Origin: Verrucomicrobiota bacterium
GTDB taxonomy: Bacteria; Verrucomicrobiota; Verrucomicrobiia; Limisphaerales; UBA11358
Length of the DNA stretch: 64,000 nucleotides
Assembly: GCA_050012035.1 (NCBI GenBank)
Contig: JBEKHY010000003.1
Span: 104,622 to 168,621 of the forward strand
Direction: 5' to 3'
In this document: piece after piece, positions 23,251 through 26,200 of the stretch
How positions within the stretch are numbered: the first letter of the stretch is position 1
Layout of the letters: each line of letters starts with the position of its first letter
The notes under the pieces: generated by a model
What the model was told of the DNA's origin: nothing
Databases searched by the model: none
The model's input: only the letters and a program-made list of their open reading frames with translations
Program-made: the position numbers and the translations under genes

Positions 23251-26200
23251 ATGAGCAAGGAATTCATCCGCATTGGCGGTGCGCGTGAGCACAACTTGAA
23301 AAATCTCACGCTGAACATCCCGCGCGACCGGCTGGTGGTCATCACCGGCTTGAGCGGCAGCGGCAAATCGTCACTGGCCTTCGACACCATTTATGCCGAG
23401 GGCCAGCGCAAATACGTCGAAAGCCTCTCTGCCTATGCCCGCCAGTTCCTTGACCAGATGCAAAAACCGGAGGTTGACTTCATCGAGGGCCTGTCGCCGG
23501 CCATTGCCATCGAACAACGCAGCTCCGCCAGCAGCCCGCGCTCCATCATCGCCACCACCACCGAAATTTACGATTACCTGCGCCTGCTCTATGCGCATAT
23601 CGGCAAACCGCATTGTCCGGATACCGGCGTGCCCATCGTCTCGCAAACCACCAGCGACATCGTGGACAAAATCCTCGCGCTGCCGGCCAGGACCAGGGTG
23701 ATGCTGCTCGCGCCGGTCGTCCGCCGGCAAAAAGGCGAGTTCCGCGACGTCATCGAACGCCTCGCGCGCGAGGGTTTCGTCCGCGCCCGCGTGGACGGCG
23801 AATTCGTCGAACTCGAAGCCAACACGCGGGTGAAGCTCGACAAAAAGAAATTCCACACCATCGAAGCCGTCGTGGACCGGCTGGTGATTGACGAAAAAAT
23901 CCGGGTGCGGCTGACCGATTCGGTCGAAACCGCGTTGCGCTGGGGCGAGGGCGTTATGTTCACGCTGCATCAATCTTCCGCGGTAGCCGCGAATGTGAAT
24001 TCGCGGACCAATCAGCCGGCCACGGCGAAAAATCCGCCGACTGACGTCGGCGGCTACGGAAACGGTTGGATCGAAACTTTGCACTCGAACAAAATGTGTT
24101 CACCCGCGACCGGCAGGAGTTTCGACCCGCCTACGCCGAAACATTTTTCGTTCAACGCGCCGGCCGGCGCGTGTCCTACCTGCCACGGCCTCGGCCAGAA
24201 GATGATTGTGGACGAAAACCTGGTTGTGCCCGACCCGGAACAGCCGCTCGACAGCGCGATCCAGCCTTGGCGCCGCGCCGGGAAACGGATGAACATTTAT
24301 TACAAGGCCATGCTGCGGTCGGTCGCGGCCCATTTCAACATCAGCCTGGAAACGCCCTGGAAAAATCTGCCGGACGATTTCAAAAAAATTTTGCTGCGCG
24401 GTTCGGGCGAGGACGACGTGGACTTTCGTTTCTGGCGCGCGGGCAACCTGCACACCGTCAGCCGCCCGTTCGAAGGCGTGCTGCCGAACCTGGAACGCCT
24501 GTTTACCGAGAGCGAGAGCGAATTCGTCCGCAACCGCATCAAGCCCTACCTGAGCCCGCAGTTCTGCGACGTCTGCAAAGGCAAACGGCTCAAGCCGGAA
24601 ATCCTGGCGGTGACGCTGGGCGGCGAGGAAGCAAGCACGCGTTTAAACGCAGGACAGGCTTCCAGCCTGTCTCCGTCTAAAAAAGTTAGAGAAAGGCGGG
24701 ACGCCTGTCCTGCCATTCCCGGCCTGTCCATCATGGATGTCTGCGCGTTGTCGGTGGAAAAGGCCGACGAATTTTTCGCCAATCTCAAGCTGACGGAGTT
24801 CGAGGAAAAAATCGCGCACGAGGTCATCAAAGAAATCCGCGCCCGGCTCGGCTTTTTGAAAAACGTCGGCCTCGGCTACCTGACGCTCGACCGCGAGAGC
24901 GGCACGCTTTCCGGCGGCGAGGCGCAACGCATCCGGCTGGCCACGCAAATCGGCGCCGGCCTGGTCGGCGTGCTCTACATTCTGGATGAACCGAGCATCG
25001 GCCTGCACCAGCGCGACAACGACCGCCTGCTGGCCACGCTCAAGGGCCTGCGCGACCTCGGCAACACCGTGCTCGTGGTCGAGCACGACGCCGAAACCAT
25101 CCGCAACGCGGATTACATCGTGGACCTCGGCCCCGGCGCGGGTGTGCACGGCGGCGAACTGGTGGCGGCGGGTCCGTTGCCGGAAATTTTGAAAAATCCG
25201 GATTCGCTCACCGCGAAATATCTCACCGGCGAACTGACGATTCCCATCCCCAAAAAACGCCTGGCGCCGTCCGAAAACCGCGGCTGGCTCGAGGTGCTCG
25301 GCGCAAAGGAAAACAATTTGCACAATATTGACGCGCGGATTCCGCTCGGCACGTTCACGTGCATCACCGGCGTGAGCGGCTCCGGCAAGAGCACGCTGGT
25401 GGACGACATCCTGCGCCGCGCCCTGTTCCGCAAGTTTTACGGCTCCCGGGAAATACCCGGGGCGCATCGCGGTCTCCGGGGTTATGAAAACGTTGACAAG
25501 GTGATTGTGATTGACCAGGCGCCGATCGGCCGCACGCCCCGCTCCAACCCGGCCACCTACACCGGCATGTTCAATCACATCCGCGATCTGTTCGCGAAAC
25601 TGCCCACGGCAAAGATTCGCGGTTACGCCCCGGGCCGGTTCAGCTTCAACGTCAAGGGCGGCCGTTGCGAAAAGTGCGAGGGCGACGGCGTGTTGAAAAT
25701 CGAAATGAATTTTCTGCCGCCGGTTTATGTGACGTGCGAGGCGTGCGGCGGCAAACGGTACAACCGCGAGACGCTGGAAATCACCTACAAGGGCAAAAAC
25801 ATCGCCGACGTGCTGGCCATGACCGTGGACGAGGCGGTGACCTTTTTCCGCGCCGTGCCGCAGATTTACGAGCCGCTGCTGACGCTGGCCGAGGTCGGCC
25901 TGGGTTACATCGGGTTGGGGCAGGCGGCGACGACCTTGAGCGGCGGCGAGGCGCAACGCGTGAAGCTGGCGACCGAGTTGAGCCGCAAGGCCACCGGGCG
26001 CACCTTTTACATTCTGGACGAACCGACGACCGGCCTGCATTTCCATGACGTGGCGAAACTGCTCGAAGTGCTGTTCAAGCTGCGCCACGCCGGCAACACC
26101 CTCGTCGTTATCGAACACAACCTGGATGTCATCAAAACGGCGGATTGGATTATTGACCTGGGCCCGGAGGGTGGGGATGCCGGCGGCCGCATCGTCGCGG

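Follow-up and report, generated by a model that had tools for sequence, protein, structure and literature searches.

REPs of Pseudomonas and Escherichia coli are almost entirely extragenic, with RAYT present as a single, vertically inherited copy, and MITEs carry IS-like terminal inverted repeats and target-site duplications. REPINs and RAYTs of these bacteria are the subject of Nunvar (2010), Bertels and Rainey (2011), Ton-Hoang (2012) and 10.1101/119735. Closer to the present case are the GTAG REP dimers inside uvrA of Opitutus terrae and of Thioalkalivibrio (Di Nocera, De Gregorio, Rocco 2013, BMC Genomics 14:522; PMC3733652). There, O. terrae has REPs in the uvrA genes Oter_3168, with inserts at residues 224-239 and 440-462, and Oter_2709. 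Each uvrA has two dimers, which add 16-25 residues in frame to the translated protein; REPs, in association with RAYT, also decorate numerous further genes for repair, replication and tRNA synthetases. An intragenic departure from the extragenic location of REPs is already documented for O. terrae (PMC3733652). The palindromic elements of Rickettsia (Ogata et al. 2000, as cited in PMC3733652) likewise lie in frame in surface loops of functional proteins, where they are tolerated.

The window, i.e. the whole 64,000-nucleotide stretch analysed here, comes from the 57-contig, 97%-complete MAG of a soil or freshwater Verrucomicrobium. The O. terrae system and the present one have in common the phylum, the gene, two in-frame dimers per uvrA, GTAG heads and an association with RAYT-like genes, and the TGVPPV peptide of O. 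terrae GTAG-19 is also a reading of the family termed F2 below (RRTGVPPVS). They differ in order (Opitutales against subdivision 3), and family F1 is not the GTAG-17 family. With Pseudomonas and E. coli the present genome shares 20-25-nt GTAG-headed hairpins, inverted doublets, a REP-flanked Y1/HUH gene (here a putative RAYT of family F2) and the lack of target-site duplication; unlike in those bacteria, about half of the units lie in ORFs, and one putative RAYT, together with its REPs, has been inserted in frame into a helicase gene in this lineage only.

Two other element classes were considered and rejected. The Rickettsia class (RPE-1 to RPE-8, or a CGTC head) has only the in-frame lifestyle in common, the heads here being GTAG or GCAG; according to PMC3733652, RPE-1 has a greater length of about 100-150 bp, RPE-4 and RPE-6 are of the CGTC rather than the GTAG class, these elements live in an obligate intracellular alphaproteobacterium, and no RAYT link is described. 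MITEs such as Correia/NEMIS, ERIC and Nezha are also short, non-coding, palindromic, multi-copy and occasionally in frame in ORFs, whereas the ends here are GTAG REP heads, and no target-site duplication, direct repeat or conserved target was seen at the borders of either uvrA element. The elements are GTAG REP dimers, probably tied to RAYT-type transposases, so that only the first half of the label "REP/MITE-like", given in an initial annotation, has been retained.

Two REP dimers in an intact uvrA

The gene and its two elements, which were found at the positions first proposed for them, are as follows.

23251 to 26280, plus strand: uvrA, class I UvrA of 1009 aa, from the intact ORF and its translation
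23983 to 24057, plus strand: element 1, 75-bp dimer of two inverted F1-family GTAG REPs, heads outward, codons 245-269 (VAANVNSRTNQPATAKNPPTDVGGY)
23983 to 24007, plus strand: left F1 REP unit, GTAG-CCGCGAAT-GTGA-ATTCGCGG-A, perfect 8-bp stem
24033 to 24057, minus strand: right F1 REP unit, read on the minus strand as GTAG-CCGCCGAC-GTCA-GTCGGCGG-A, perfect 8-bp stem
24649 to 24713, plus strand: element 2, 65-bp REPIN (inverted dimer) covering codons 467-488, built from two F2-family units with GCAG heads
24649 to 24673, plus strand: left F2 REP unit, GCAG-GACAGGCT-TCC-AGCCTGTC-TC, fitting the F2 consensus (counted among the in-ORF units as C3:129275)
24689 to 24713, minus strand: right F2 REP unit, read on the minus strand as GCAG-GACAGGCG-TCC-CGCCTTTC-TC, with one stem mismatch

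The encoded protein is full-length and exceeds the curated NCBIfam cut-offs (NF001503, 1420.7 bits against 1147; TIGR00630, 1353.7 against 729.8), and the solved UvrA structures 2R6F, 3ZQJ and 9GXK match it at E = 0. It is the only match in the genome at E<=1e-100. The protein keeps all residues that are invariant in the alignment, including both Walker A motifs, LSGGE twice and the zinc-module cysteines C308/C311/C439/C442/C806/C809/C829/C832. The reading frame and motifs are therefore intact, as had been proposed from the sequence.

Element 1, whose first base opens codon 245, spans exactly the 25 codons initially described. Its two perfect 8-bp hairpins (CCGCGAAT-GTGA-ATTCGCGG and CCGCCGAC-TGAC-GTCGGCGG) also stand. 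The outer stem said to enclose them does not: the complementary ends (GTAGCCGC/GCGGCTAC) share 4 bp with each inner stem, so the two structures cannot coexist, and what looks like a stem is the GTAGCCGC head that the two inverted REP units have in common. As single-stranded DNA the element reaches -25.5 kcal/mol (z -5.25), and 0 of 200 shuffles were as stable. The proposal that its spacer is a remnant of an ancestral loop was dropped, the similarity being weak.

Element 2 begins at codon 467 and has the exact 11-bp inverted repeat reported for it (GCAGGACAGGC/GCCTGTCCTGC), within 25-nt arms that are 88% complementary; it folds to -22.8 kcal/mol (z -7.43; 0 of 200 shuffles as stable). Three of the four units in the two elements have perfect 8-bp stems, the exception being the right unit of element 2. 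At 65 bp the length is not a multiple of three, so of the claimed in-frame insertion the frame is kept at both elements and a clean codon-for-codon insertion fails for element 2. The initial annotation had also assigned about 34 extra residues to this element. Compared with solved structures there are indeed ~32-34, of which 22 (467-488) are encoded by the element; the rest form a lysine-rich linker that is present in relatives too.

The AF2 model of UvrA has a mean pLDDT of 83.6, with long stretches below 50 only at residues 246-270 and 468-485. These are the two elements, which are accordingly modelled as disordered surface loops, and the loop region anticipated for element 1 is borne out in that model. 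The HMMER alignment to 2R6F is interrupted precisely at both element sites, and residues 461-492 have no counterpart in that structure. Site 1 is a hairpin loop at the end of what we take to be the UvrB-binding domain, from the presumed domain boundaries of Bst UvrA and the HMMER alignment to 2R6F. Site 2 lies in signature domain I, at the junction that follows the second zinc module.

The repeat families and a RAYT-like transposase

Both elements belong to families dispersed through the genome, as was expected if they were repeats. F2 comprises 234 units (134 by a stricter pattern; 0 in a reversed-pattern control) with the oriented consensus AAC-GTAGGACAGGCGTCCCGCCTGTCTC. Head frequencies are G.98, T.87, A.78 and G.97; the second position is C in 9% of members, and both units of element 2 read GCAG. 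Upstream of F2 heads, only a weak AAC preference was seen where a conserved target was sought. Among F2 pairs less than 90 nt apart, 80 of 85 are head-outward dimers. Element 2 is repeated almost in full, together with its spacer, at C6:83217-83279 (90% over 63 nt), which contradicts the idea that this spacer is an ancestral-loop remnant. Its right unit is itself counted among the in-ORF units, in opposite orientation, as C3:129313 (peptide RRDACPA). F1 gave about 46 pattern matches against 0 for the reversed control; copies retain the GTAGCCGC head with compensatory stem variants, and dimers span 52-76 bp. Many genomic copies of 23-26 nt exist for both F1 units of element 1, the right one matching C20:30109-30131 (23 nt, 100% identical) and C11:91102-91126 (96%).

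GTAG-headed hairpins number 374 genome-wide; of eight control heads, six gave 24-156. The remaining two, TAGG (234) and GATG (156), probably reflect genuine repeat families, TAGG lying within the F2 head GTAGG. The units are stable short hairpins with a GTAG (GYAG) head, dispersed at high copy number and arranged as inverted doublets. They depart from REPs in location: 227 of 480 units (about 47%) are inside ORFs predicted by an in-house, crude codon-usage caller, as are 64% of F2 dimers, and a strict count gives 179 units in 92 genes. Core genes carrying REPs include dnaE, mfd, ileS and valS. All nine REP-bearing ORFs checked against Pfam were real core genes (DnaE, PheT, aconitase, DinG-like helicase, HrpB, IleRS, ValRS, Mfd and GlnE). 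Five of the six reading frames through the REP sequences are open; the closed one is that in which the head reads TAG. Head-to-head spans of in-ORF F2 dimers showed no multiple-of-3 bias (24/15/12), in frame statistics that are partly circular because open ORFs were required. This, with the 65-bp length of element 2, means that the inserted unit or its repair must include extra bases.

A further example is seen in the window itself, in thiC.

33736 to 33760, plus strand: F2 REP unit with GTAG head, in frame in thiC (VGQASSLS; C3:138362), in a 709-aa ORF at window positions 33109-35238
33190 to 33213, plus strand: F2-like REP unit with GTGG head, early in the thiC ORF (C3:137816, relative position 0.04)

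The second of these may lie upstream of the true thiC start. The palindrome ACAGGCTTCCAGCCTGT of element 2, noted earlier as recurring in thiC, is indeed found at 33741-33757, with 3 matches (<=2 mismatches) against 0.02 expected.

Eight Y1_Tnp matches were found in the genome. One, at C2:~73100-73700, has F2 REP dimers on both sides, and its top NCBIfam match is the REP-associated tyrosine transposase NF047646 (E 7e-15), at 55 bits below the 80-bit cut-off. This whole putative RAYT and its REPs are inserted in frame in a DinG-like helicase gene; the insertion is specific to this genome, the site being empty in 20 of 20 relatives. No F1-flanked RAYT was found near any of the eight matches in this 97%-complete MAG.

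Occupancy of the two UvrA loops in relatives

On either side of both elements, uvrA is collinear with the orthologues of 27 other genomes, and the frame is kept. Of 17 same-genus orthologues compared, four (L007, L009, L010, L012) are empty at site 1 and the others hold unrelated elements there; site 2 is shorter by 15-22 residues in several relatives, and in a wider sample most UvrAs outside this order, non-verrucomicrobial ones included, are without the extra residues. Orthologues therefore share no homologous residues at these positions; had they done so, it would have spoken against insertion. Across the genomes searched, F2 pattern matches fall from 134 here to 0-15 in most congeners and F1 matches range from 0 to 136 (reversed-pattern controls 0-3 for both). 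The empty sites, these patchy copy numbers and the genome-specific DinG-like insertion are evidence, at the level of sequence comparison, that the elements are probably mobile. It is extremely unlikely that nothing was inserted, and that these are ancestral low-complexity linkers, palindromic by chance, or an assembly artefact of the metagenome bin. Both loops do vary in length across bacteria and the genome is a MAG in 57 contigs, yet that reading is already contradicted by the collinear flanks, by hundreds of family copies against about 0 in reversed controls and by folding z-scores of -5 to -7.

We consider it highly probable that the REP dimers of uvrA were spread by RAYT-type transposases and are tolerated as translated, disordered loops. 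Both are REPINs, non-autonomous, hairpin-forming DNA of the GTAG-REP superfamily, presumably mobilised by RAYT-type HUH/Y1 tyrosine transposases of the same genome. Copies would land genome-wide, and those surviving inside essential genes would be those that keep the frame, add no stop codon and fall in a structurally permissive loop. In uvrA they would be transcribed and translated as loops of 25 and 22 residues in a UvrA that stays functional, and the shared sites would reflect selection rather than targeting.

An insertion machinery that prefers these two positions, for example through a resident hairpin or REP attracting insertion of, or replacement by, a REP, heptamer or MITE, would mean that more is at work than the lethality of insertions elsewhere. 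It would also account for the turnover within the genus, in which the two sites hold another element in almost every species. The F1 dimer occupies site 1 in this genome (G000) and in G003, which belong to separate, well-supported clades whose neighbours have other elements or none, and G003 has almost no further F1 copies. One ~190-nt palindrome (ALSPGERE/PLPGGEG) is shared at site 2 by L028 and L014, which belong to different families, and the same loops hold palindromic inserts in Chthoniobacter, Geobacteraceae and Blastomonas. The REP dimers of O. terrae Oter_3168 match both loops by spacing, in coordinate arithmetic rather than alignment (201 residues against 198 here; PMC3733652). Targeting is nonetheless unlikely: a selection filter alone gives the same pattern, because the model has only two long disordered loops; the borders have no conserved target sequence or target-site duplication; and genes of the same functional category mostly carry REPs at different sites, as reported in PMC3733652. 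That the loops are true hot spots, colonised independently and repeatedly across phyla by unrelated structured repeat classes, is likewise doubtful. Three such classes were seen there: GTAG REP dimers, arrays of inverted heptamers and a palindromic MITE of ~190 nt.

The stability of the hairpins, and the place of site 1 in what is presumably the UvrB-binding domain, would also suit recruitment of the loops or of the DNA/RNA hairpins for a function, such as tuning of UvrB binding, mRNA stability or translation pausing. Replication and repair genes are enriched in REPs, according to PMC3733652. Such co-option is very unlikely, however, since even close species have unrelated sequences at both sites and some species have none, so that no conserved peptide or structure is maintained, and the same elements occur in many unrelated proteins.

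Repeat-derived loops in housekeeping proteins

The novelty assumed in the initial annotation has gone: an event of the same kind was published in 2013 (PMC3733652), so the finding is one of breadth and not a new principle. New here are the share of REP units inside ORFs, the refilling of the same two UvrA loops by different repeats in species after species, and the whole putative RAYT with REPs in frame inside a DinG-like helicase gene. Genus-wide turnover at the same two loops is not reported for O. terrae in PMC3733652.

Core genes of a second verrucomicrobial order would thus carry "extragenic" palindromes as translated, disordered loops. Repeat-derived inserts in the housekeeping proteins of such genomes are something that annotation pipelines and phylogenies based on alignments need to allow for. 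Recurrent occupation of the loops provides a natural map of UvrA positions that tolerate 20-70 extra residues, and makes the uvrA loops a tractable case in which to ask whether REPIN insertion is targeted or merely filtered by selection. If the two loops were preferred targets, this would point to targeting at the DNA level, e.g. by a hairpin already in place that seeds the insertion or replacement to follow; REPINs of this lineage would seem to find a refuge in the permissive loops of essential genes, and the in-frame RAYT in the DinG-like helicase gene would be an active, self-mobilising REPtron and not a domesticated single-copy gene.

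Palindromic repeats inside uvrA and their families

The window covers C3:104622-168621 of the source genome. Both palindromes that the initial annotation had placed in uvrA were found:

uvrA: window 23251-26280, + strand; 1009 residues, stop-free translation
Element 1: window 23983-24057; 75 bp, codons 245-269
Element 2: window 24649-24713; 65 bp, beginning at codon 467

Their architecture was also as described there. Element 1 is 25 codons long and contains two perfect hairpins with 8-bp stems between complementary ends (GTAGCCGC/GCGGCTAC); element 2 is bounded by an exact 11-bp terminal inverted repeat, and its 25-nt arms are 88% complementary. 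Folded as single-stranded DNA, elements 1 and 2 reach -25.5 kcal/mol (z -5.25) and -22.8 kcal/mol (z -7.43), respectively, with 0 of 200 shuffles as good in either case.

GTAG REPs and REPINs (inverted REP dimers) are defined as hairpins of 20-25 nt that carry a GTAG head, occur in many copies and are arranged as inverted doublets. BLAST searches of both elements against the whole source genome (3.59 Mb in 57 contigs, 57% G+C), a check that the annotation had proposed, returned other copies and, together with a census of perfect hairpins, placed them in two dispersed families, F1 and F2. The commonest 14-mers in the genome are fragments of one unit, that of F2, whose consensus from 234 oriented copies is AAC-GTAGGACAGGCGTCCCGCCTGTCTC, with the four GTAG head positions conserved at.98,.87,.78 and.97. 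Element 2 consists of two inverted F2 units, heads outward, with the GCAG head variant in both; a near-entire copy including the spacer (90% identical) lies at C6:83217-83279, and 80 of 85 closely spaced F2 pairs take the head-outward form. Element 1 is a dimer of the same type made of F1 units, the pattern of which, GTAGCCGC-NNNN-GTSA-NNNN-GCGG, was matched 46 times, against 0 for the reversed control. Across F1 copies the head and outer stem are constant and the inner four stem pairs vary in a compensatory way, the dimers spanning 52-76 bp; elsewhere in the genome element 1 is matched by 25-nt units only, its spacer having no copies. GTAG-headed hairpins number 374. Eight other tetranucleotide heads served as controls: six of them gave 24-156 hairpins, and the remaining two were TAGG (234), which overlaps the GTAGG head of F2, and GATG (156), which is suspected to draw on another repeat family. 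The earlier label "REP/MITE-like" therefore stands for its REP part, as GTAG-REP dimers, whereas strict MITE identity was ruled out because target-site duplication is absent.

Across genomes G000-G030, the F2 pattern is matched 134 times in the source genome (G000), 64 times in relative G012, 35 times in one other genome and 112 times in G020, where most copies have a GTGG head; the remainder have 0-15. F1 matches range from 0 to 136 (136 in G022, 66 in G004, 60 in G017, about 0 in many). Such uneven copy numbers among the relatives searched are as expected for recently active families and suggest lineage-specific bursts.

Transposases and REP units in other genes

Eight matches to the transposase profile Y1_Tnp were found in the genome, none of them a Y1 gene with flanking F1 units. 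A Y1 transposase at C2:~73100-73700 has an F2-type REP dimer on each side and carries an HUH-like NHVHVV motif; its best NCBIfam match is NF047646, "REP-associated tyrosine transposase" (RAYT; E 7e-15, 55 bits, under the 80-bit cut-off). An IS200-like transposase of 150 aa (C15:42226-42678; NF033573, above cut-off) lies between its own GTAGCCCAYGGC hairpins, which are inverted and GTAG-headed (GTAGCCCATAGC.../GTAGCCCACGGC...). These form a third REP family of ~12 copies, 10 intergenic, 2 at ORF edges and 0 wholly inside an ORF.

Outside the window, a DinG/XPD-like helicase ORF of 964 aa (C2:71587-74481, L122; L129:1501-4395) was seen to hold at residues ~471-735 a complete REP dimer-RAYT-REP dimer unit, in frame and stop-free, after the first helicase domain and before Helicase_C_2. 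The helicase lacks this unit in 20 of 20 relatives searched, where matches to 1-470 and ~735-964 are contiguous and open frames are mostly 708-750 aa. The insertion occurs in the source genome only and goes beyond what is described in PMC3733652.

Genes were called with a simple home-made codon-usage caller (2767 genes, 83% coding). Inside ORFs lie 139 of 234 F2 units and 51 of 80 F2 dimers, and, over all families, 227 of 480 units in 128 genes; a strict count (ORFs of at least 300 residues, positions 10-90%) gives 179 units in 92 genes. About half of the REP units are thus intragenic, an observation that also goes beyond PMC3733652. Nine REP-bearing ORFs were checked against Pfam: DnaE, PheT, aconitase, DinG-like helicase, HrpB, IleRS, ValRS, Mfd and GlnE.

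Genes of the source genome with in-frame F1 and/or F2 REP dimers
dnaE: C1:188039-191788
pheT: C1:239063-241708
aconitase: C5:84660-87503
hrpB: C9:9322-12021
ileS: C17:68767-71808
valS: C16:83012-86032
mfd: C12:53553-57191
glnE: C8:75711-78812

By itself, pheT holds four F2 units and two F1 units. Five of the six frames through a REP unit are free of stops; the remaining one, which reads TAG in the head, is used by 1 of 68 same-orientation copies, a figure that is partly circular since ORFs were required to be open. In the window, the thiC ORF (33109-35238, 709 aa) contains an in-frame F2 REP at 33736-33760 and further in-frame arm-TCC-arm palindromes, e.g. GCCGGCTTCCAGCCGGC near 33855.

The two UvrA loops in relatives

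In an alignment of UvrA from 27 relatives, including 17 congeners, homologous residues at the loops holding elements 1 and 2 (sites 1 and 2) were not common to all. Site 1 is empty in four congeners (L007, L009, L010, L012), which have only HQ-EPNAKSDA-W compared with 31 residues in the source genome; other GTAG dimers occupy it in L002 and L004 (GTAGGGCGGGC...) and in L008 (GTAGGGCTGACC...), 7-nt repeat arrays or other palindromes in further relatives, and an F1-like dimer in L028, in the same place as element 1. At site 2, several relatives have a lysine-rich linker of 19-22 residues versus 34 in the source genome, where the site with the 65-bp element 2 is a net 45 nt longer than in the short-linker relatives; others carry four-hairpin clusters or a ~190-nt palindrome encoding ALSPGERE...PLPGGEGRGEG. 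In a wider sample, most UvrAs outside this order, including non-verrucomicrobial ones, are without extra residues at site 2. Against Geobacillus UvrA (structure 2R6F), residues 236-274 lie opposite a 9-residue loop and 461-492 opposite nothing. In a tree built with both sites left out, the source genome and L028 fall in different clades (support 100/99) and the sites of their neighbours are empty or hold other elements, so the sites were filled or refilled several times.

Chthoniobacter and Blastomonas as well as a Geobacteraceae MAG carry strongly palindromic inserts at these loops too (z -4.6 to -7.7). The ALSPGERE/PLPGGEGRGEG palindrome at site 2 is shared by L028 and L014, from two different families of the order, and PLPGGEG-type palindromes lie at site 1 in L060 and L061 (Geobacteraceae MAG, z -7.7; Blastomonas MAG, z -5.7). 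The 7-nt tandem arrays, often two inverted, were seen at one or other site in L003, L006, L011, L013, L015, L019, L027, L039, L040 and L049, with units such as AAAGTCC x4, CAATCGG x4 and GTCGAGA x4 opposite CTCGACC, and TTTCAGA in Chthoniobacter. Because 7 is not divisible by 3, an array that grew or shrank by a single unit would put uvrA out of frame.

Probable tolerance, precedents and recurrence

This uvrA, the only full-length class I UvrA gene in the genome, scores above both NCBIfam UvrA equivalog cut-offs and departs from none of the columns that are invariant in an alignment of 34 sequences, among them the two Walker A motifs, the two LSGGE signatures and eight zinc-module cysteines, in agreement with the earlier claim of an intact frame and downstream motifs. 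An AlphaFold2 model from that alignment (mean pLDDT 83.6) bears out the proposed loop position: its only long segments under 50, 246-270 and 468-485, are the two elements, and the sole other such segment has 7 residues (819-825). From the Geobacillus domain map, we take site 1 to be the loop ending the UvrB-binding domain and site 2 to lie in signature domain I, directly after the second zinc module. In-frame placement has a parallel in the Rickettsia palindromic elements.

In-frame REP dimers in uvrA are a kind of event already known. The GTAG and CGTC REP superfamilies were defined by Di Nocera, De Gregorio and Rocco (2013; PMC3733652), who reported intragenic REPs in several species, most in Opitutus terrae (Verrucomicrobia); many of the REP-bearing genes serve replication and repair. 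They found double REP inserts in each of the two uvrA genes of O. terrae and two REP dimers in Thioalkalivibrio uvrA. In Oter_3168, an O. terrae UvrA of 999 residues, the dimers are at residues 224-239 and 440-462. Judged from these coordinates, they very probably occupy the same two loops as here, because the inserts are 201 residues apart compared with 198 in the source genome. The same paper states that, within one functional class, the position of the REPs mostly differs from gene to gene.

What goes beyond PMC3733652 is that the same two UvrA loops are occupied by different structured repeats in almost all species of the genus. Targeting of these loops could be proposed for their recurrent filling, but it is much less likely than selection; that the recurrence comes from selection for disordered loops alone is much the more likely reading.
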